A stretch of DNA of 64,000 nucleotides from Gemmatimonadales bacterium (GTDB lineage Bacteria > Gemmatimonadota > Gemmatimonadetes > Gemmatimonadales > GWC2-71-9), in assembly GCA_041577295.1 (NCBI GenBank), contig JBFGJG010000019.1, forward strand, positions 4,420 to 68,419. The letters are read 5' to 3'. The notes beneath the pieces were generated by a model. That model was not told the DNA's origin. It made no database searches and saw only the letters and a program-made list of their open reading frames with translations. Shown here in pieces: positions 36,303 through 44,455 of the stretch (position 1 is the first letter of the stretch; the number at the start of each line of letters is the position of its first letter). The position numbers were made by a program, and so were the translations under genes.

Positions 36303-36307
36303 TCCGG

Positions 36308-38029
36308 ATGCGACGGAAGGGCCCACGGGGCTTTCTCCTTTGGGCCGCTGTCTTGCTGCCCGCCTGCGCCGGTGATTCAACACCGGACGCAGATCTCGTC
36401 CTTCTTCACGGCAATGTCCTGACGGTCGATCCAACTCGGCCGATTGCCGAAGCGGTTGCGGTGAGCGGGGACACGATCGTGGCGGTGGGCAGCGATCGGG
36501 AAATCCGCCGGTACGTCGGACGGGAAACGGAAGTGATCGATCTGGGTGGCTGGACCGTGCTCCCAGGTTTCATCGAGGGGCATGGGCACTTCATGAGCCT
36601 CGGCCGTTCGAAGATGAATCTCGATCTGACCACGGCGCGGTCGTGGAACGAAATCGTGACGATGGTCGGCCAAGCTGCGGCCGACGCACCGGTCGGCGTC
36701 TGGATTCAGGGACACGGCTGGCATCAAGAGAAGTGGGACGTGGCCGCCGATCCTGCCATTGAAGGCCTTCCCACACACGCGTCGCTTAGCGCAGTCTCGC
36801 CCAACAATCCCGTGGTACTCACGCACGCCAGCGGTCACGCATCCTTCGCCAACGCGCGTGCACTCGACATGGCAGGGATTCGCCGCGGCACACCCAATCC
36901 GCCAGGCGGGACGATCGTCCGCGACAGGGCGGGGCAGCCGACCGGTGCGCTGAGGGAAAGAGCACAGCTTCCGGTACGTGAGGCTCTTGCGCGATGGGAG
37001 TCCACGCGCAGTCCTGCAGAGAACGCTGCTCGGCAGCGGCGTATGGTCGAGCTCGCGGGGCGTGAGCTGCTCGCTAAAGGGGTAACGTCGTTTCACGATG
37101 CTGGATCGTCGTTTGCCACGATCGAGTTTCTGCAGGAGCTGGCCGAAGCTGGGGAGTTGCCCGTCCGATTGTACGTCATGGTACGGTATCAGACGAACGA
37201 CGAGATGGCCGCGCGGCTACCGGAGTTTCGGCGGATCGGGGTGGGCGGAGGGTTCCTCACGGTTCGCTCCATCAAGCGGCAGATTGACGGCGCCCTAGGG
37301 CCACACGGGGCTTGGCTGCTTCGACCGTACGAGGATCTTCGGAGCACCGGCTTGATTCTCGAGCGTCCGGACGACATTGCCCGCACGGCGGAGTTGGCGA
37401 TCCAACATGGATTCCAACTCAACACCCATGCGATCGGTGACCGCGCGAATCGCGAGGTGCTCGACATCTACGAGCGCGTGTTCGCGGCGCATCCCGGGGC
37501 AACCGATCTTCGGTGGCGCATCGAACATGCCCAACATCTCCATCCGAACGACATTGCACGGTTTGGCCAGCTCGGTGTGATCGCTTCGGTGCAAGGGATC
37601 CACGCTACCTCGGACGGGCCGTGGGTGATCAAACGGCTGGGTGAGCAGCGCGCATTTGAGGGAGCCTACGTGTGGCGTAAGCTCATCGACGTCGGGGCGT
37701 TGGTGACCAACGGTACCGACGCACCCGTCGAAGACGTCGATCCCATCGCCAGTTTTTACGCTTCGGTCACCCGTCGTCTTGCGGACGGTTCCGTGTTCTT
37801 TCCGGAGCAAAGCATGACCAGAGACGAGGCGCTGCGCTCTTACACCATCAACAACGCGTATGCCGCGTTCGAGGAGGCGATCAAGGGATCGCTCGAGCCG
37901 GGGAAGCTCGCAGATATCGTGGTGCTGTCGCGAGACATCATGACGGTGCCGGAGGATCGCATACCGGGCACTGAGGTGGTGATCACGATCGTGGGTGGAA
38001 AAGTGGTCTACCGGTTGGGCGAGTCTTAG
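36308..38029 (+). CDS. Amidohydrolase-3 (YtcJ-like) lipoprotein
   Basis: LPAC lipobox; PGFIEGHGH, DGALG, HAIGDRAN, RIEHAQ, GTDAPV and GKLAD. Confidence 0.93.
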   Translation: MRRKGPRGFLLWAAVLLPACAGDSTPDADLVLLHGNVLTVDPTRPIAEAVAVSGDTIVAVGSDREIRRYVGRETEVIDLGGWTVLPGFIEGHGHFMSLGRSKMNLDLTTARSWNEIVTMVGQAAADAPVGVWIQGHGWHQEKWDVAADPAIEGLPTHASLSAVSPNNPVVLTHASGHASFANARALDMAGIRRGTPNPPGGTIVRDRAGQPTGALRERAQLPVREALARWESTRSPAENAARQRRMVELAGRELLAKGVTSFHDAGSSFATIEFLQELAEAGELPVRLYVMVRYQTNDEMAARLPEFRRIGVGGGFLTVRSIKRQIDGALGPHGAWLLRPYEDLRSTGLILERPDDIARTAELAIQHGFQLNTHAIGDRANREVLDIYERVFAAHPGATDLRWRIEHAQHLHPNDIARFGQLGVIASVQGIHATSDGPWVIKRLGEQRAFEGAYVWRKLIDVGALVTNGTDAPVEDVDPIASFYASVTRRLADGSVFFPEQSMTRDEALRSYTINNAYAAFEEAIKGSLEPGKLADIVVLSRDIMTVPEDRIPGTEVVITIVGGKVVYRLGES

Positions 38030-38044
38030 TGCACGCGAGGTATC

Positions 38045-39058
38045 TCAGACGTCGGAGGCTGCACGGCTCGTCCTGACCGGAATCTTCATCGAGAAAACGG
38101 TCTCACCATTTGCACCGCGACTTTGCTCGAGCCACCCGCCCGCGCGCAGGACGAGCGCACGACACAGCTCGAGGCCGAGGCCGGAGCTCCCGGGCTGGCT
38201 CGTGCCACCGGCAGGCCCCGCATCGCTCACCCTGAGATGTGCCGTCCCGTGCGTGATAGTTCCCTCGATGAGGACGGGGCCAGGCTTGGCGTACCGGATC
38301 GCGTTGTCGATTAAGATGGCACAAGCCTGACGCACGACTAGCATGTCGTCGCAGTAACTCTCATCGTCCCCAGACACGTCCACCCGCAGGTCTTTGCGGC
38401 GCAACTGCGCTTCCGTGAGAAACCCCCGTAGCTCGGCGGTCAGGTCGGTTGCAAGCTCGTGCCCAGAACGCGGTGGTACCTGGGCCGGTGAGATTTCCAT
38501 ATCCGTTTTCGCCAAACCCAGGATGCTATCGAGCTTTCCGAGGCTGCGGGTGAGTCGTGCGACAACGGGTGTCAAGAGGCTCGAGTCCGGCCGTTCGCCG
38601 CGGGCGAGCTCTCCATCGACATACTCGAACGTCTCCACCGCCATGCTCAGCGGGGATCGCAGGTCGTGCGCAAGGAGCGACATGAGGAGGCGATTTAGCT
38701 GGCTCGAGCGTGTCGCCTCCTCGCGCGCGCGGCTGATCTGGATGCGACGGGTCTGGATGCGAAGGGCGATTGCACAGGCGGCAGGGAGTGTAAGCGAAAC
38801 GAAGATTCGGTTCGGAATCCAGACGGCTTCTGGTGAGATTGGGCCTCGACCGAACGCCGCTGCGATGAAAAAGCCGACGAAAGCGATGCCGAACGTGAGC
38901 CACACTGATCGACGGTCGTCCGTCAGCGACGAAAGCATGATGGGGATGCAGAGGAGAATCCCGACGACGATCCCTGCAGGAGTAAGCCAGTCGAGGATGA
39001 GGATACCCACGACACCGGCCAGGCTCGTTGCGGTCAAGCCAACGCTATGCCCGATCAC
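38045..39058 (-). CDS. Membrane sensor histidine kinase (intramembrane-type N-terminus)
   Basis: About 4 TM helices; AHDLRSPL H-box, DNAIRY N-box and GLGL G-box. GTGA overlap with the regulator stop. Confidence 0.92.
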   Translation of the reverse strand: MIGHSVGLTATSLAGVVGILILDWLTPAGIVVGILLCIPIMLSSLTDDRRSVWLTFGIAFVGFFIAAAFGRGPISPEAVWIPNRIFVSLTLPAACAIALRIQTRRIQISRAREEATRSSQLNRLLMSLLAHDLRSPLSMAVETFEYVDGELARGERPDSSLLTPVVARLTRSLGKLDSILGLAKTDMEISPAQVPPRSGHELATDLTAELRGFLTEAQLRRKDLRVDVSGDDESYCDDMLVVRQACAILIDNAIRYAKPGPVLIEGTITHGTAHLRVSDAGPAGGTSQPGSSGLGLELCRALVLRAGGWLEQSRGANGETVFSMKIPVRTSRAASDV

Positions 39059-40416
39059 AGGCCATAGCGGCGCCGTTTTTCCCATAGCGTTTTCCGCGAG
39101 ATGCCCAGCAGCCGAGCAGTGTCCTCCATCTGCCGGTCGGGATCGTACGCGAGGGTGGCGGCGATGTATCGCCGTTCCACCTCTTCGAGGGCGAGCCCGT
39201 GGTCGAGCGCGACAGCATCCGCTCCCGCCGTCAGGCCATCTGGCTCCCGTGCCGGTGGTCGGATGCGGAGTGGTCCACCGCCGTGAAAGATGAGTGCTCG
39301 CTCGATCGCGTTGCGAAGTTCCCTCGCATTGCCGGGCCAGGAATAGTCTTGCAGATCGGCGAAGGAGTCGGCATCGATTTCAGGAGTCGGACGTTTGAGA
39401 TCCTCACTCAAGTCATGAACGAATCGGGCAGCGATCTCGGGGATCACGCCTGCCATTTCTCGTAAGGCCGGCATTTCGATCGATGCGACGTCGAGTCGGT
39501 AAAGGAGGTCCAGCCGGAATTCACGTTGTCGCACGCGTTCCTTCAGGTCTTCGTTCGTGGCGGCAACGACGCGGCACGTGATGGGAATGGGGTGCGTGCC
39601 GCCCACCCGCCGAATCTCTTGGCTCTCGAGAAAGAGCAACAGCTTTCCCTGAAGCTCGAGCGGGAGGGCGCCGATTTCATCCAGCAGGAGTGTGCCTTCG
39701 TGTGCGAGTTCAATGAGTCCGCGTTTGAGCGCCTTCGCGTCCGTAAACGCCCCCTTTTCGTGGCCAAACAGTTCGGACTCCAGGAGATTCGCTGGGATCG
39801 CGGCGCAGTTCACTTCCATGAATCGGCCGTCGGAATCGGACAGATCATGAATGGCTCGGGCGAGAACACTCTTTCCCGTTCCTGACTCGCCGGTGATCAG
39901 GATCCGGACTGACGAAACGCCCGCAACCTGCTCCGCAAACTGGCGGACTTCGTCCAATCGACTATGTGTTCCAACGATCACCCTTCCGATGTCGTAGCTA
40001 CTCTGGCTCGCCAGCCGCCGCGACACTTCCTCTCGCACGGGCCGTTCTGCCACCGCACGCTCGACGAGGGCGAGCAAGGCATCGGTGTTCACCGGTTTTG
40101 GCAGGAAGTCGTTTGCCCCGGCCCGGATGCCGTCCACCGCACGCGGGACCGTCGCGTGTGCGGTCACCAGAAACGTCGGGAGTGATGGATCTGACTGTCG
40201 AATCCGACGAACGAGTTCGATGCCATCCACCCCCGGCATGGCGAGATCGGTTATCACGCTATCGTAGGGCTCCCGGGCGAGGGCGACGAGGGCTTCCTCG
40301 GCCGAGCCTACGAGGTCCGCGTGGACCCGGGCTCGCCGGCCAAAGTTCGCCTTGAGGATCCGGCCCTCGAGCGGGTCGTCATCCACGAACAGCACTCGCA
40401 GTTGTCTAGGGCACAT
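39055..40416 (-). CDS. Sigma-54-dependent response regulator (REC-AAA+-HTH)
   Basis: VDDD, D-x-x-MP, KP; GESGTGKS; ESELFGHEKGAFTDA; LLLDEI; WPGNARELRN; LGISRKTLW. Confidence 0.96.
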   Translation of the reverse strand: MCPRQLRVLFVDDDPLEGRILKANFGRRARVHADLVGSAEEALVALAREPYDSVITDLAMPGVDGIELVRRIRQSDPSLPTFLVTAHATVPRAVDGIRAGANDFLPKPVNTDALLALVERAVAERPVREEVSRRLASQSSYDIGRVIVGTHSRLDEVRQFAEQVAGVSSVRILITGESGTGKSVLARAIHDLSDSDGRFMEVNCAAIPANLLESELFGHEKGAFTDAKALKRGLIELAHEGTLLLDEIGALPLELQGKLLLFLESQEIRRVGGTHPIPITCRVVAATNEDLKERVRQREFRLDLLYRLDVASIEMPALREMAGVIPEIAARFVHDLSEDLKRPTPEIDADSFADLQDYSWPGNARELRNAIERALIFHGGGPLRIRPPAREPDGLTAGADAVALDHGLALEEVERRYIAATLAYDPDRQMEDTARLLGISRKTLWEKRRRYGL

Positions 40417-40484
40417 CCGGTACTCCTCACCGGATCTTGAAGCTCGGAACCGGCCGTGACAAGCATCGGGCCGGGACGGGCTGC

Positions 40485-40525
40485 CGTGTTACGAAAGGTT
40501 ACGCACGTAACGTTCCCGTAACACG
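40485..40525. promoter_or_regulatory. Nested palindromic upstream activator sequence (probable enhancer-binding-protein site)
   Basis: CGTGTTACG (40485-40493) / CGTAACACG (40517-40525) enclosing GTTACG-CA-CGTAAC (40498-40511), giving four GTTACG half-sites. Confidence 0.72.
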
Positions 40526-40600
40526 CTTCGACAAGGGTGCCCATCGGGTCGACGACGTCAAGTCGGTGCAATGAAATCACTTGGGCCCTGTGGCACGAGT

Positions 40601-40616
40601 TGGCCCGGGGGTTGCT
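40601..40616 (+). promoter_or_regulatory. Sigma-54 (-24/-12) promoter
   Basis: TGGCCCGGGGGTTGCT has exact GG-N10-GC spacing, one mismatch to TGGCAC-N5-TTGCW, and lies about 75 bp downstream of the palindrome. Confidence 0.78.
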
Positions 40617-40680
40617 TCTCCAACGCGCTTTGCAACCCGCAAGCGGGGCGTCCGCACTGTCGCGAACACCGCCAGGTTGC

Positions 40681-40760
40681 ACCGCGAGAATGGCACCCCG
40701 GCCGTGAGGCCGGTCCGCAAAGCTCAGGATCTCCACCGAGATGGCCGAGCCGCCGAAGGA
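40681..40760 (+). ncRNA. Cyclic di-GMP-I (GEMM) riboswitch
   Basis: GGCA, P2 CCGGCC-GUGA(GNRA)-GGCCGG, CGCAAAGC junction, P3 GCUC/GAGC and AUCU/AGAU, 3' GCCGAA. Lies in the 5' UTR about 30 nt before ATG 40793. Confidence 0.82.
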
Positions 40761-40792
40761 CGAAATGGCAACTCACTTGGAGGAGATCGTTG

Positions 40793-41776
40793 ATGAGCAA
40801 CGCAGGTGCAGTACGTAGTCTCGTGGGTGCGGCAGCGGTGGGCTTGGTGCTGACCGCCTGTGATCGTGCCCCGGCCGATCCGTTGGCCGTGGAAGACGCG
40901 ATCAACCTGTCCGCGACCAACCGGACCAACACGGCACAGTCCGTGATGATCGTGCTGTATGGTGCGAGCGACTTCGTCATCGAGGAAGAGCAGACTTGGT
41001 CGTACGCGTTCTCAGGTCAGCCGGGTGCCGTCGCCGCGTTCGACACGTATTTCACGGTGACGACTTCCGGGGGCCCCAATGCAAGCCAGATTGCAACGGC
41101 CAAGCATAACGCGTTCAAGGCGCCGAACCGGTGTAATCTGTGGAACGGTAACGCTCTCCAGACGGTCACTTCGACTTTTGGCGGTCGTTCTGTGACCGCC
41201 ACGCCTAAGTCGCCTAGCACACACGCTGCGAAGACCGGCTGGAACGTGGAGGTGACGGGTGGTGGGCCCGTGGAGGTCAGTCTCGACTATGGCTCGTACA
41301 TTGCGAGCCAGAACGCAGTCGACAAGGCGACCAGCAATGGAAACCAGCCCTGGAAGCGCAAGTACTCGTTTGGGTTGGACGAGGCAAGGATCGTTGGCCT
41401 CACGGTTGAGCTGCTCGACGCTGCCAACTACGTGGTGGCCCCATACAGTGGCGAAGCCGGTGTATCCGGATACTACGCAGGCGAAGACTTCGAGTATAAC
41501 GGCAACGCCGGTTCCAGCGGACCGAACGGAATTCTGGCCAACGGTTTGGTCAGCGGTATCTTGAACGGCACAGTTGGTGGAAATGACGGCAAGAAGGATG
41601 ACTTCGCCGGTAACGATGGTGAGGGTGCGGTGAAAGCCCACCTCAACTCGATGACGTGGAGCCTGGGCGAGGGTGAGTATACCCTGTCCGTCCGGGGGAC
41701 CGTGCGGGGTGTGGCCGGAGCCATGGATGCGTTGTTCAACGGCACGAAGCAGGTCACAATATTGGGCGGTTGCTGA
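40793..41776 (+). CDS. Uncharacterised secreted lipoprotein (327 aa, Gly/Asn/Thr-rich, beta-rich)
   Basis: GGAGGAG RBS; LVLTA|C lipobox; ends ...VTILGGC; no family recognised. Confidence 0.85.
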   Translation: MSNAGAVRSLVGAAAVGLVLTACDRAPADPLAVEDAINLSATNRTNTAQSVMIVLYGASDFVIEEEQTWSYAFSGQPGAVAAFDTYFTVTTSGGPNASQIATAKHNAFKAPNRCNLWNGNALQTVTSTFGGRSVTATPKSPSTHAAKTGWNVEVTGGGPVEVSLDYGSYIASQNAVDKATSNGNQPWKRKYSFGLDEARIVGLTVELLDAANYVVAPYSGEAGVSGYYAGEDFEYNGNAGSSGPNGILANGLVSGILNGTVGGNDGKKDDFAGNDGEGAVKAHLNSMTWSLGEGEYTLSVRGTVRGVAGAMDALFNGTKQVTILGGC

Positions 41777-41822
41777 TTCTCGACATCGCACGAGTAGTGA
41801 AAAGGATGACATAGTTACACGA

Positions 41823-41861
41823 CTGCTGCCGCTTCACCCCCCTGGGGTGGGGCGGCAGCAG
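41823..41861 (+). terminator. Strong hairpin downstream of the lipoprotein gene (terminator or 3' stabiliser)
   Basis: CTGCTGCCGCTTCACCCC-CCT-GGGGTGGGGCGGCAGCAG forms an 18-bp stem with two G-U pairs; no U-tract. Confidence 0.6.
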
Positions 41862-41894
41862 ATCGCATCAGCAACACATTCTTCGGAGTTTCCA

Positions 41895-42641
41895 ATGCAG
41901 GCCCGCCGTGCACGAGACCGAGTCCCGCATATCGCCAGCTGGAGCCCCAGCTTCGGCCCGGCGGGTCTTCCCGCCTACGAGCGTGCCAAGCCGTCGTTCA
42001 TGCTCATCGACCCCGGTGGACCTGGACTCCTCTTGATTCCCACGGATCACGTCCGCGAGATCCCCCGTGGTGAGGGAGGCGAGGAGCTATCCAGGCGCGT
42101 CCGCGCGCGCGCAGCGCGGTGGCTGGAAAGCACGGAGCGCTCGCGACGGAGGACCTTGATTACCGAGACGCTCGTGCTCCTGGCCGAGGAGTTGAGTCGC
42201 ATCCGGTCGAGCGTGGAAGTCATCGAGGCGCTGCTTCGCCATGGGGAGACGATCTTCGGCTGTCGAAGAGCGTTCATTCTTGCATTTGAACCTTCTGAAC
42301 CCGGGGGAATGGGCACCTGGCGGTTGTGGCACGGTGAGGGAGACCGCTCGTTCGCTGCGCCGTCCCTTTCGGTTGTGCCTTTTTCGTTTGCACCGGTGTT
42401 CGTGAGGCGCGAAGCACAGAACAAAGAAACCGGGTCGTGTTTCTCACTGGTGTTTGACCAAACGGATGCCCATGTGCTCTGTGCCGCAGCCATTGCCGAA
42501 GATTGTTTGCTGGTCGTGGCGGAGAGGCGGGGTGGAGCCGAACCCGATGCCGATGACTGGTACGTGCTGCGAACCGTCGCCCGCTTTGCCCAAGCAGCGC
42601 TGTCCCACAGTCGCATGCTCGACGAGATCGGCGGCGGCTAA
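41895..42641 (+). CDS. Stand-alone GAF-like domain protein
   Basis: GGAG RBS; L-x-x-x-x-EEL...I-x-x-x-x-RAFIL and ...LLVVAERR...DDW-x-VL-x-x-VA-x-x-A-x-x-AL-x-x-x-RML, a typical GAF C-terminal helix. No output domain. Confidence 0.62.
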   Translation: MQARRARDRVPHIASWSPSFGPAGLPAYERAKPSFMLIDPGGPGLLLIPTDHVREIPRGEGGEELSRRVRARAARWLESTERSRRRTLITETLVLLAEELSRIRSSVEVIEALLRHGETIFGCRRAFILAFEPSEPGGMGTWRLWHGEGDRSFAAPSLSVVPFSFAPVFVRREAQNKETGSCFSLVFDQTDAHVLCAAAIAEDCLLVVAERRGGAEPDADDWYVLRTVARFAQAALSHSRMLDEIGGG

Positions 42642-44455
42642 GAACCCCCGAGCAACACCTCGAGCTTTTGGGCACGCAAGATCGACTCCTCGAGCGCCTC
42701 GATGAGTCGATTCCGCTCTCGGATCAGTGTTGTCTCGGCGAACTGATACCGATCAGTTCCTCGCGGTTCCTCCCTGAGAATGCTGGCGGGAGCCAGCCCC
42801 GGTAGCATACCCAGACTCACGCCAGGATCGGGGTGGTACGGATCCGACGGGGAGTAGAGCACCCGGTGCAGCGGCCGGAGCAGATCTACCAGCGCCACGT
42901 CCAGCTGTTCATCGGCGACCGGCGGAACCTTCGCATGAATCCGCTCGATGAGTTGCGCGAGGTCTTGTTGCCGACGCGTCGCCTCACTGAGGTCGAGGCG
43001 TCCACCCGATTCGTGTTCCCGTTGGCGAATGAGGTCACCCAAGCCAGCGAGTTCAGCCCGCAGATCGAGTGGCAGCATCGGTGCGGCTAGCAACTCGGAG
43101 AGCGCGTCGACATAGAGCTCGGTATCGGTCTCGAGGACCGTAAAGTCGACCTTGTCAAAGGTGTCTTCCGGTGTGTGCCACCACCAATAGCCTCCGTCCT
43201 CCGCGAGCCGCGTGTGGTGAATCTGAAAGAGCGGTAACCCAATCCCGTTGAAGGACTGGTCGGAATTGCGTCCCGGCCGGCCTGGATCGATGCGGTTGCC
43301 GGTCGCCCGCTGAATGACGCGCTGCGCCAGCGGTGCCAGTGAAGATGTGGTCGACGCAGCGAACCGCTTGGCGCCCATTTGCCCCACGCCGTCGATGTTG
43401 ACATACGCGATGCCCCGGTCGCGCAGCTCCTGAAAGAAATGATCCGCAAACCAAGTCGAACCGGCATATCTAGCGTTGCTATGTCCGGGCCACCAGGCGA
43501 CGACGAGCCCCCGGCGGAGACGGTGACGCTCGCGTTCAAAGGCGCGCGCCAATTCCACCATGGCGGCGTTCGAAGCCCCCTCGTCCGTCCCACCGCGATA
43601 CCACGCGTCGATATGTCCACCGAGCAAGACATACGGTGCTGCGTTCGCATCGGGTGGGTCGACCCGGGCGACTGCCAGACGGAGCGGTTTCCACCCGGTG
43701 CGCACCTGGACGGTCAAGCGGACGCGCACCGGTCCCGTTGCCAGCCACTCGCGCAGGCGTGCTCCTGCACTTCGCGTAATCTGCGCGACGGGGATATCTG
43801 GCAGCCGATGCGCGTTGCGCAGCGACGGGATTCCCCACGTCGACGTGACGATGAGATCGTTGAGACGTTCCTCCGGATTCACGAAGACTACGCCGGCGGC
43901 GCCGAGCTCGGCGAGTACCGTGGTGGGCACGTTGCGCGGGAGGCCGTCGACCATGGCGATGGCACCTGTGAGGTTTGGGTCGCTCGGTCCCACCGGCAGG
44001 ACCAGGCGTTCGCCGGTGCCGGTCTCGAGCGCGGGCAGATCGTCCAAAGATCCGAGGTCCACCAGCGCCGCTTCCAATCGATCCGCCGAAGCGGAGAACG
44101 ACGCGGTAATCGCCCGCGGGGTGAAGTCGTGCCCGACGACTTCTAGCTGCGCCGCAAAGGGGTCGCTGGCATAGGCGAGAAACTCGTGGACGTCGACGCG
44201 AATCCCTTCGGCCCGCAACGTCTCCACGATGTAGTCGATCGCCGCATTTTCTCCAAGACTGCCGGACGGGCGCTCATGCGCCACGATCGCCCGCGTGTGC
44301 CGCTCTAACCTGGTCGGTGTGATGTGTTGCCGAGCGGCCAGCGAGAGCAGGCGTACGGCAGGGTCCGGCTGTGCCTGCTGGGCGAGAGTTGGCGAGGCGG
44401 AGGCCGCCAGCAGTCCCAGCGTGATGGCGATAAAGGACTGTGATGCGGCAATCAT
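42638..44455 (-). CDS. Secreted M28 peptidase with PA domain
   Basis: GHIDAW, G-x-x-DE, WPGHS, YVNID and WWHT-x-EDT-x-DK. ATG 44455 overlaps the GMC stop. Confidence 0.88.
   Translation of the reverse strand: MIAASQSFIAITLGLLAASASPTLAQQAQPDPAVRLLSLAARQHITPTRLERHTRAIVAHERPSGSLGENAAIDYIVETLRAEGIRVDVHEFLAYASDPFAAQLEVVGHDFTPRAITASFSASADRLEAALVDLGSLDDLPALETGTGERLVLPVGPSDPNLTGAIAMVDGLPRNVPTTVLAELGAAGVVFVNPEERLNDLIVTSTWGIPSLRNAHRLPDIPVAQITRSAGARLREWLATGPVRVRLTVQVRTGWKPLRLAVARVDPPDANAAPYVLLGGHIDAWYRGGTDEGASNAAMVELARAFERERHRLRRGLVVAWWPGHSNARYAGSTWFADHFFQELRDRGIAYVNIDGVGQMGAKRFAASTTSSLAPLAQRVIQRATGNRIDPGRPGRNSDQSFNGIGLPLFQIHHTRLAEDGGYWWWHTPEDTFDKVDFTVLETDTELYVDALSELLAAPMLPLDLRAELAGLGDLIRQREHESGGRLDLSEATRRQQDLAQLIERIHAKVPPVADEQLDVALVDLLRPLHRVLYSPSDPYHPDPGVSLGMLPGLAPASILREEPRGTDRYQFAETTLIRERNRLIEALEESILRAQKLEVLLGGS

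Follow-up and report, generated by a model that had tools for sequence, protein, structure and literature searches.

A putative two-signal AND gate, with a sigma-54 activator and a c-di-GMP-I riboswitch, at a lipoprotein gene of a Gemmatimonadales bacterium

Sigma-54 promoters have the consensus TGGCAC-N5-TTGCW, and in the NtrB/NtrC and AtoS/AtoC systems a REC-AAA+-HTH activator and its cognate kinase are combined with tandem palindromes located about 100–120 bp upstream of a GG-N10-GC promoter. With FleQ, VpsR and FlrA, a single protein integrates the activator signal and the c-di-GMP signal when transcription is decided, and the genes concerned are surface or biofilm genes. These three are proteins of the sigma-54 activator type to which c-di-GMP binds directly (compare PMC3424551). 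Vc1 (PMC4744006) is a class-I aptamer in the 5′ leader before gbpA of Vibrio cholerae, which encodes a secreted surface or colonisation protein; c-di-GMP raises its expression.

Here we describe a locus in the window (the whole 64,000-nucleotide stretch of DNA analysed) which we judge, with a probability of roughly 65%, to be a dedicated two-signal AND gate for a single lipoprotein gene. The coordinates of its features are collected in Table 1.

Table 1. Features of the lipoprotein locus and its surroundings, with positions in the window and the basis of each assignment
Feature	Position	Strand	Basis
6.3-kb stretch absent from a same-genus genome	36303..42637		Genome comparison
Histidine kinase, 346 aa	38045..39085	-	Pfam HATPase_c, E 2.5e-08
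NtrC-family sigma-54 activator, 453 aa	39055..40416	-	Pfam domains, motifs
Putative enhancer (UAS), four GTTACG/CGTAAC half-sites	40485..40525		Inverted repeats, shuffles, conservation
Sigma-54-type promoter, TGGCCC-N5-TTGCT	40601..40616	+	Motif scan, L013 alignment, rpoN in genome
c-di-GMP-I (GEMM-I) aptamer, short-P3 subtype	40682..40757	+	Rfam RF01051
Predicted anti-Shine-Dalgarno segment (in aptamer stem P3, from its 5′ strand and loop)	40728..40740	+	Inverted repeat, MFE
Shine-Dalgarno region and start codon (ATG 40793)	40776..40795	+	Sequence, folding
Lipoprotein P0001, 327 aa, secreted family without a name	40793..41776	+	Lipobox, family searches
Stable hairpin, ~21 bp	41820..41865	+	Folding, no U tract
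Orphan ORF P0108, 248 aa	41895..42641	+	Codon-position GC pattern looks coding

Organisation and distribution of the locus

Like NtrB/NtrC and AtoS/AtoC, the locus has an activator–kinase pair and tandem palindromic sites upstream of a GG-N10-GC promoter. The divergent regulator/kinase operon claimed in the sequence-only reading was confirmed by Pfam, the regulator consisting of Response_reg (6e-25), Sigma54_activat (5e-61) and HTH_8 (4e-07) domains and being followed by the HATPase_c kinase; the regulator start codon (ATG 40416, minus strand) and that of the lipoprotein gene (ATG 40793) are separated by 376 bp, as had also been stated. The activator has the Walker A motif GESGTGK, a Fis-type HTH and, as read from the translation, the phospho-acceptor Asp57 in a DLAMPG context. 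Its gene overlaps the start of the kinase gene by 31 nt. Unlike the NtrC and AtoC regulators, it matched no NCBIfam equivalog above cut-off; the best models were those for AtoC, NtrC and a PEP-CTERM-box regulator, and the scores fell short of the cut-offs (333/714, 329/559 and 326/503 bits). A further difference is the sigma-54 contact loop, GAFTDA, in which five of the six positions are as in GAFTGA; the variant is found in four of the 12 strong sigma-54 activators of the genome. The kinase also differs from those of the known systems, being membrane-embedded and without a recognised sensor domain. It carries the H-box AHDLRSPL (from the translation), and its N-terminus, read by eye, has about four hydrophobic segments with no evident extracytoplasmic domain. 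All its matches to NCBIfam histidine-kinase models were below their cut-offs.

In the 4.74-Mb genome, rpoN is present (446 bits against a cut-off of 277), there are 17 GGDEF matches, and four c-di-GMP-I riboswitches occur besides the one before the lipoprotein gene.

The whole module recurs in one other MAG (L013, Gemmatimonadales), with kinase, activator, enhancer, TGGCAC-N5-TTGC, aptamer, Shine-Dalgarno (SD) sequence and homologous lipoprotein. Protein identities across the module are 55–69%, with 55% for both the kinase and the lipoprotein and 69% for the activator, which has the GAFTDA loop and an identical C-terminal HTH helix. The description of the locus as a self-contained module is well founded, given that the genome has no second copy of the enhancer and that the order kinase–activator–enhancer–promoter–riboswitch–lipoprotein is repeated in this second MAG. 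As to the gene arrangement being kept in relatives, the picture is mixed: it holds for the one MAG, whereas searches of 40 relatives, 400 genomes of the phylum and 298 other genomes of the bacterial family found no member of the lipoprotein family. In a same-genus genome that lacks the 6.3-kb stretch, which comprises the genes for an amidohydrolase (36308–38029), the kinase, the activator and the lipoprotein as well as P0108, the two flanking genes are 52 bp apart. This stretch is not flanked by repeats of at least 8 nt, and no anomaly was found in its composition.

Downstream of the lipoprotein gene, the predicted strong hairpin is present: a 124-nt region has a folding energy of −50.8 kcal/mol (z −5.0), and none of 200 shuffled sequences was as stable. 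A terminator scan called no terminator on it; the hairpin may be either a terminator or an RNA-stabilising element. The following gene, P0108, had been read as GAF-only, and this did not hold up: there was no Pfam match at E ≤ 1, no NCBIfam match and no GAF chain among three weak PDB sequence matches. A remote GAF-like fold is possible; the single-sequence model (mean pLDDT 37.7) was too poor for a fold search. No relative of P0108 was found apart from itself, and it was not found in L013 or in two same-genus genomes.

The aptamer and the ribosome-binding site

The claimed GEMM-fold RNA was recovered by the covariance model, RF01051, at 42.5 bits (gathering score 35; E 5.9e-05) in a match spanning the full model (1–87). 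The L013 ortholog scores 43.5 bits. Among the five c-di-GMP-I riboswitches of the genome, this aptamer has the lowest score. It keeps the consensus letters AAUGGCA, CGCAAAGC, GCCGAA, the 3′ internal loop C and the P3 bulge G, and in a nine-member alignment of the subtype both partners have changed in six of the 19 pairs. With these letters the consensus is kept at the positions that we take to correspond to G20, A47, A48 and C92 of Vc2 and to the inter-helix C and G. The ligand contacts of c-di-GMP-I aptamers, as given in PMC4744006, are G20, A47, A48, C92 and an inter-helix C and G. The locus resembles Vc1 in having a class-I aptamer with equal ligand-contact letters in the 5′ leader of a secreted-protein gene; it differs in that P3 is short, the P2 internal loop is different, the expression platform would be a simple anti-SD inside P3, and a sigma-54-type promoter and its own adjacent two-component system are present, with ligand binding being predicted here.

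In detail, the P2 tetraloop is of GNRA type (GUGA in the window, GUAA in L013). The P3 stem is 11 nt shorter than the variable region of the model, and the standard receptor for this tetraloop is therefore not evident. The P2 internal loop is ACC/UCC, compared to AAA/GAC in the consensus. The c-di-GMP-I-GGC variant (RF03167) was considered and rejected as an assignment, its 49.2 bits being below the cut-off of 59 and the sequence reading CGCAAAG where the model has CGCGAAG.

The strong ribosome-binding site and start codon of the sequence-only reading are present, with GGAGGAG at 40779–40785 and ATG at 40793. From the predicted transcription start the leader is 166 nt long. Within it, the 13-nt segment at 40728–40740 is 85% complementary to 40776–40788, and in the minimum free energy structures of both leaders, those of the window and of L013, the SD is paired with the 5′ strand of P3; the probability of the SD bases being unpaired in the absence of ligand is ∼0 in both. 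The pairing has undergone a compensatory change, GAUCUCC/GGAGAUC in the window being GGUCUCC/GGAGACC in L013 (A-U to G-C). No terminator was found in the 35 nt between the aptamer and the ATG. Because the anti-SD lies inside the aptamer, folding of the aptamer and hiding of the SD are mutually exclusive; since the SD pairs with the 5′ strand of P3, c-di-GMP should therefore switch translation on. The energy models of the two orthologous leaders thus suggest an ON switch, and the conserved letters suggest c-di-GMP as its ligand. In an automated survey of 18 leaders of the family, which picked the wrong start codon for L013, the designs were mixed, with at least three of four SD bases paired to the aptamer in 6/18.

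That the aptamer is instead a diverged subtype with another ligand, or an OFF switch, we consider unlikely. The departures in P2 and P3 would fit such divergence, as would the modest RF01051 score beside the higher score of the variant model and the A found at the G20 position in other aptamers of the same genome; pilin-type genes of relatives have the SD in the 3′ strand of P1, a design that looks OFF. Against these readings, the letters at G20, A47 and C92 are canonical and the GGC-defining position is an A, on the mapping that we assume. The location of the anti-SD, by which hiding of the SD excludes folding of the aptamer, also speaks against them.

Promoter and enhancer

The GG-N10-GC promoter of the sequence-only reading is present as claimed, the motif scan giving TGGCCCGGGGGTTGC at 40601–40615; the GG and GC elements are exactly 10 bp apart and there is one mismatch to the consensus, the −24 element being TGGCCC rather than TGGCAC. 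The motif alone is at the level expected by chance, with one occurrence in the window where 0.28 were expected (at least one was found in 24 of 100 shuffles) and 20 in the genome where ∼19–22 were expected. Support for it comes from its position, its conservation and its enrichment before riboswitches rather than from the match itself. In the single ortholog available, L013, a TGGCAC-N5-TTGCG aligns with the promoter while the flanks have diverged. A second TGGCAC lies at 40591–40596 with the wrong spacing.

The enrichment was determined for GGC[AC]C-N5-TTGC in 204,850 nt in all, with both strands counted. The motif lies 32–80 nt upstream of 9/35 c-di-GMP-I aptamers of the bacterial family and has only three matches in the remaining ∼196 kb. 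It also precedes 5/17 of a further set of aptamers, and when the two copies of the module are removed it is found 32–80 nt before 12/50 of the family's c-di-GMP-I aptamers. As around a quarter of these riboswitches have a sigma-54 motif before them, the combination is a recurring design. Among such cases in the family, only this module has an adjacent regulator of its own. No sigma-70-like promoter was found in 37800–43000, using a scan that may not suit this phylum. Taken by its sequence, the lipoprotein gene would be transcribed in an RpoN-dependent manner, from a start predicted near 40627.

The four-half-site palindrome that had been claimed was also confirmed: the pattern occurs once in the window, in 0/100 shuffles, and nowhere else in the genome, another difference from the NtrB/NtrC and AtoS/AtoC systems. 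The half-sites are spaced by 10–11 bp. The outer arms (40485–40493/40517–40525) are 100% complementary and the inner arms (40495–40503/40506–40514) 89%; L013 matches exactly in three of the four half-sites. The centre precedes the predicted transcription start by ∼122 bp and is only ∼89 bp from the start codon of the activator. This points to a putative binding site for the activator and, the site being single in the genome, to a single target gene.

Alternatively, the −24/−12 match could be fortuitous, with a real riboswitch served by some other promoter and the activator sites controlling only the divergent operon or acting in repression. The lack of enrichment in window and genome, the closeness of the enhancer to the activator's own start codon and the GAFTDA loop would all be consistent with this. 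We nevertheless hold it to be rather improbable, because the motif is kept at its exact spacing in L013 between diverged flanks, is strongly enriched before the aptamers of the family and lies at a distance from the enhancer that is typical of such activators, and because of the negative sigma-70 scan, with the reservation given above.

The lipoprotein family and the proposed AND gate

The lipoprotein begins with a signal peptide, read by eye as MSNAGAVRS, a hydrophobic core and the lipobox LTAC with Cys23; by a rough pattern search, 28/87 full-length relatives have a lipobox-like motif. The family comprises 100 cluster representatives; its conserved features are a TAQS motif close behind the signal peptide, Cys114 and, at the C-terminus, Cys327. 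The claim that it belongs to no assignable family was borne out, there being no match in Pfam or NCBIfam. A sequence search of solved structures with the family profile gave no match at E ≤ 10, and a fold search, in which the middle domain was not a separate query, gave only generic Ig-like matches (best Z 7.3). The gene of one relative, P0006 (44% identical), immediately follows a PilZ gene (E 1.8e-12), which ties the family to c-di-GMP independently of the riboswitch. Most likely, the lipoprotein is built around an Ig-like β-sandwich and has a cell envelope or surface role in the high-c-di-GMP (sessile) state. Its being a subunit of a Bacteroidota type V (fimbrillin) pilus or fimbria, rather than belonging to a new family as a matrix or adhesion protein, is improbable: the UniRef name of a Flavihumibacter relative (P0010, ‘Fimbrillin family protein’), the many members that are lipoproteins of ∼320–360 aa made of β-sandwiches and the conserved second lipoprotein gene alongside the Bacteroidota members speak for it, and the absence of fimbrillin Pfam families from 35 members (0/35, with one weak DUF4493 match), the lack of a solved structure among the profile's matches and the generic Ig-like matches of the fold searches, none with the middle domain alone, speak against it.

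The sequence elements and the alternative pairing, both conserved in L013, would operate in two steps. In the first, the membrane-embedded kinase would phosphorylate its NtrC-type partner, which would then bind the four-fold GTTACG enhancer ∼120 bp upstream and open the sigma-54 promoter, so that the transcript would start near 40627. In the second, the 5′ strand of P3 (GAUCUCC) would pair with the SD region (GGAGAUC) in the absence of ligand and hide the ribosome site; with c-di-GMP bound, the aptamer would retain the P3 strand, the ribosome site would be free and the protein would be made, as a lipid-anchored, secreted Ig-like β-sandwich. Since the gene lies behind both a sigma-54 promoter and a c-di-GMP riboswitch, the lipoprotein is probably made only when the kinase signal and c-di-GMP coincide.

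The locus had been described as a triple-input circuit. The kinase and c-di-GMP signals stand, but the RpoN promoter does not count as a third, because all it does is pass on the action of the activator; there are two signals, not three. ‘Undescribed system’ is apt for the protein family and not for the control parts, as c-di-GMP-I riboswitches of the bacterial family commonly have sigma-54 motifs before them: the control parts of the module are of known kinds and the protein family is new. As with FleQ, VpsR and FlrA, a sigma-54-family activator and c-di-GMP would jointly set the expression of a surface or biofilm gene; unlike there, the signals would act serially, the activator on the DNA and then c-di-GMP on the mRNA.

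A broader reading, which we put forward only tentatively, is that the TAQS…Cys proteins are a new c-di-GMP-dependent envelope or surface family, and/or that a sigma-54 promoter with a c-di-GMP-I riboswitch is a phylum-wide serial AND gate. If so, the family would be wired to c-di-GMP in two ways, through a riboswitch in Gemmatimonadales and, in another lineage, through a PilZ receptor encoded next to it. The phylum would have an AND gate for envelope remodelling, in which the activator decides transcription and the messenger translation; it would apply to about one riboswitch in four, in front of pilin-like genes and various lipoproteins. The locus described here, having a two-component system to itself, would then be the only example that is fully self-contained.

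Genes, control region and conservation of the locus

The window derives from a metagenome-assembled genome of 4.74 Mb (153 contigs, 62.6% G+C). Within it, a sensor kinase gene and a response regulator gene, which overlap by 31 nt, are divergent from a gene for a lipoprotein that matches nothing in Pfam or NCBIfam. The sequence-only reading had listed a four-half-site palindrome, a promoter, a riboswitch and a ribosome-binding site in the 376-bp gap, and all of these were found there, between the divergent genes, where it had placed them. The module is compact, with ∼2.8 kb of regulators plus the 376-bp control region.

Features of the locus and of one related contig (window coordinates unless a locus handle is given)
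Feature	Position	Strand	Length	Characteristics
Amidohydro_3 (amidohydrolase) gene	36308-38029			starts 6 nt after the stop codon of the BNR gene; inside the 6.3-kb stretch
Kinase	38045-39085	minus	346 aa	HATPase_c; H-box AHDLRSPL; ∼4 N-terminal hydrophobic segments
Activator	39055-40416	minus	453 aa	Response_reg (6e-25), Sigma54_activat (5e-61), AAA_lid_14, HTH_8
Sigma-54-type promoter motif	40601-40616	plus		TGGCCC-N5-TTGCT
c-di-GMP-I aptamer match	40682-40757			RF01051 type
Lipoprotein	ATG 40793	plus	327 aa	lipobox LTAC, Cys23
ORF P0108	ATG 41895		248 aa	after the hairpin; coding-like GC across codon positions
Single-domain PilZ gene	L014:72-437		121 aa	directly precedes the gene for the nearest metagenomic lipoprotein relative; E 1.8e-12

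Searches for the lipoprotein gave no match in 40 relatives (two of them from the same genus), in 298 other genomes of the family or, using a family profile, in 400 sampled genomes of the phylum. The tally of 40 relatives and the family aptamer tally (see below), and probably the 400- and 298-genome tallies, include the unpublished genome G016, on which no claim rests. A one-genome-per-species scan with a profile from a four-member alignment returned one contig, L013, whose genome belongs to the same family. The search for synteny proposed by the sequence-only reading has a mixed outcome: among the genomes covered, one other has the arrangement, which is complete there from kinase to lipoprotein: kinase, activator, enhancer (three of the four half-sites exact), promoter, aptamer (43.5 bits), Shine-Dalgarno sequence and homologous lipoprotein gene, the last interrupted by the contig end. 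Between the two copies, the only ones known, identity is 55% for the kinase, 69% for the activator and 55% for the lipoprotein, and the DNA-reading helix at the activator C-terminus is identical.

In a same-genus genome, the genes that flank window positions 36303-42637 (a BNR/sortilin-like gene and an M28 peptidase gene) are separated by just 52 bp. An insertion of this 6.3-kb stretch in the window's genome and a deletion in the same-genus genome are equally possible explanations. A mobile insertion was considered and set aside, as the stretch is unmarked, having neither flanking repeats nor a composition shift.

The stretch also contains P0108. The lipoprotein gene is followed by a stable hairpin (z −5.0) without a U tract, and P0108 lies beyond it. 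This ORF had been described as a GAF-only gene, but all of the identity evidence is negative, leaving that description unsupported: there was no Pfam or NCBIfam match at E≤1, no relative among 5.8 billion proteins in a word-based search, and no match in the genome of L013 (G412) or in two same-genus genomes (G001, G002). The structure model is of low confidence (pLDDT 37.7). P0108 is at most a candidate member of the module.

The c-di-GMP-I aptamer and its expression platform

The predicted riboswitch was borne out by the covariance-model check, the aptamer scoring 42.5 bits where the Rfam gathering score is 35. The model for the c-di-GMP-I-GGC variant gave 49.2 with permissive filters, below its own cut-off of 59, and this identity was rejected because the aptamer has an A at the position where the GGC consensus has a G. 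When aligned to the canonical model, the aptamer retains the letters GGCA, CGCAAAGC and GCCGAA, which we take to be the equivalents of Vc2 G20, A47, C92 and the inter-helix C–G pair. In PMC4744006, G20, A47, C92 and the inter-helix C–G pair are given as ligand contacts.

Three features depart from the consensus: P3 is 11 nt shorter (RF01051 alignment), the loop is GUGA, and the P2 internal loop is ACC/UCC rather than AAA/GAC. Together these mark a lineage subtype. An alignment of nine such aptamers (one each from the window and L013, seven from loci in related genomes) shows P2 near-invariant and the P3 pairing preserved, with two-sided changes at 6 of 19 pairs. Elsewhere in the window's genome there are four c-di-GMP-I aptamers, scoring 58–67 bits, and the genome has 17 GGDEF matches.

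Many c-di-GMP-I matches of the genome and the family carry AGAGCA instead of the consensus AGGGCA. Loci of this kind are C11:22994-23073 and C70:15021-15108 in the window's own genome (L002, L005), where the aptamers stand before a pilin-like gene and a Big_2/pectate-lyase-like gene, as well as L026, L034, L037, L041, L042, L044–L046 and L051. The change puts an A at the position mapped to G20, as in the cGAMP-sensing GEMM-Ib type. Tandem aptamers were also seen: the related genome G043 has three c-di-GMP-I aptamers each at C3:4761-5163 and C36:1983-2385, ∼157 nt apart.

The aptamer lies 35 nt from the ATG of the lipoprotein gene, and a terminator scan found no terminator between the two. The longest inverted repeat of the gap pairs 40728-40740 (the 5′ strand of P3 plus the loop) with 40776-40788, a segment that takes in the Shine-Dalgarno sequence GGAGGAG. 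When the leader is folded without ligand, the Shine-Dalgarno bases have a probability of ∼0 of being unpaired, in the minimum-energy structure as well as in the ensemble. Because P3 needs the same nucleotides as the Shine-Dalgarno pairing, a ligand-stabilized aptamer should free the ribosome site. The leader should then act as a translational ON switch for c-di-GMP, a direction that we infer from the modelled folds. The anti-Shine-Dalgarno pairing is retained in L013 with a two-sided change (GAUCUCC/GGAGAUC in the window, GGUCUCC/GGAGACC in L013). An automated survey of this pairing in 18 family leaders was heterogeneous, with one start codon mis-picked, and no support is drawn from it; four DNA metagenome runs yielded short contig pieces only, with no leader variant that could be used.

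At four loci in relatives (L057, L059, L060 and L062), type IV pilin-like genes that are 39–51% identical begin 7–9 nt behind c-di-GMP-I aptamers, with the Shine-Dalgarno sequence within or beside the 3′ strand of P1. This layout suggests an OFF design, the reverse of that predicted for the lipoprotein leader.

The sigma-54-type promoter and its pairing with riboswitches

Taken alone, the promoter motif is unremarkable: it occurs once in the window where 0.28 occurrences are expected, and 20 times genome-wide against ∼19–22 expected from a first-order model. Its support comes instead from the presence of rpoN and 12 strong activator genes in the genome, the adjacent enhancer, conservation in L013 and enrichment before aptamers. 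The enhancer is a set of four GTTACG/CGTAAC half-sites that face the same side of the helix, and its centre lies ∼122 bp ahead of the predicted transcription start. A genome-wide pattern search found this tetrad nowhere else in the window's genome, and it is likely to be the binding site of the adjacent activator. The promoter motif aligns with TGGCAC-N5-TTGCG in L013, with diverged flanking sequence. The sigma-54 contact loop of the activator reads GAFTDA, a variant common to 4 of the 12 activators of the genome.

A perfect TGGCAC also occurs at 40591-40596, 10 bp ahead of the −24 element, but no TTGC follows it at the right spacing; this copy may be a relic or serve as a second contact for RpoN. 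Counting the studied locus, 3 of the 20 genome-wide −24/−12 matches have one of the 12 activator genes nearby. The other two, strict matches at C12:31986 and C25:48880, are each ∼2 kb from an activator gene (C12:34060 and C25:50990), and these activators likewise have the GAFTDA loop.

The enrichment before aptamers was seen across the family. Of 35 c-di-GMP-I aptamers, 9 have GGC[AC]C-N5-TTGC 32–80 nt upstream on their own strand; the scan covered 204,850 nt, and the other ∼196 kb hold only three more matches, both strands counted. In a second set of 17 further aptamers, picked for shortness and not for promoters, the motif precedes five. Excluding both copies of the module leaves 12 of 50 aptamers, although the loci include orthologues and the counts are not independent. 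In this bacterial family, a sigma-54-type promoter is commonly stacked on a c-di-GMP-I leader. In the freely accessible literature that was searched, no description was found of such a promoter combined in cis with a c-di-GMP riboswitch.

What is particular to the studied locus is the private two-component system with its unique enhancer, together with the target protein family. Using tblastn, no activator gene was found within ∼1.5 kb of 49 other riboswitch loci, and the ORFs behind the 17 short aptamers had no match to the lipoprotein family at E≤10.

The lipoprotein family and a proposed two-signal gate

An exhaustive HMMER search of 1.84 billion cluster representatives gave 100 homologues at E≤0.001, 39 at 1e-10 and 7 at 1e-30, most of them 300–360 aa long. 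In a 35-member alignment, a signal peptide or lipobox is followed by TAQS opening the mature protein; Cys114 and a C-terminal Cys are near-invariant, and further motifs are NKCxFWxG, TGW, KYSF, NAGxFGN and VKGN. A Cys falls within the last 12 residues in 91 of the 100 matches. No Pfam family is common to the 35 members, and named members are 'hypothetical protein' with one exception, a UniRef 'Fimbrillin family protein' whose name is unconfirmed.

The alignment-based structure model is of good confidence, with a mean pLDDT of 85.9. Foldseek returned no PDB match at E≤0.001, and the family profile gave nothing at E≤10 against PDB sequences. When the whole-protein model was searched with VIA-align (wide), the best Z was 7.3 (rmsd 3.2, 86 aligned), and 6.8 in a second look; all fold matches were generic Ig-like domains from the N- and C-terminal strands. 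An Atlas search with the Flavihumibacter relative (P0010) reached 0.82 at best, below lead level.

Some members occur in Chitinophagaceae (Flavihumibacter, Ginsengibacter). No riboswitch was found at those loci, where the gene always adjoins a conserved second lipoprotein gene (L010:4684-5844, L011:4605-5843, L012:7361-8476). These second lipoproteins are 57–72% identical to one another, share the motif GNNLSFPV(I/L)W, have no Pfam match, and have no relative that could be found in the window's genome. L009 and L012 also have a tRNA gene just upstream. A metagenome scan gave one locus. It holds the nearest metagenomic relative of the lipoprotein (44% identity), whose gene begins ∼30 nt behind a PilZ gene on the same strand. 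This neighbour is a second, independent link of the family to c-di-GMP, in a single case. From the secretion signals and the regulation, we would guess at an envelope or surface role.

The model with the best support from these sequence features is a serial two-signal gate. The kinase and activator would act through sigma-54 to drive transcription of the lipoprotein gene, and c-di-GMP acting on the mRNA would then free translation; the product would be a protein from an unnamed family, sited in the envelope or at the surface. The RpoN promoter had been counted as a third input; it would be the conduit of the first signal only, making two signals and not three. Control by a membrane kinase through sigma-54 would give very tight OFF states. 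If the model is true, the module would be a compact natural two-input gate, with one input at transcription and one at translation, small enough for transfer to a reporter strain. It would also offer the first functional handle on a secreted family of ∼100 cluster representatives that is nameless in databases, and sigma-54 promoters and c-di-GMP riboswitches would be systematically paired within one little-studied phylum.
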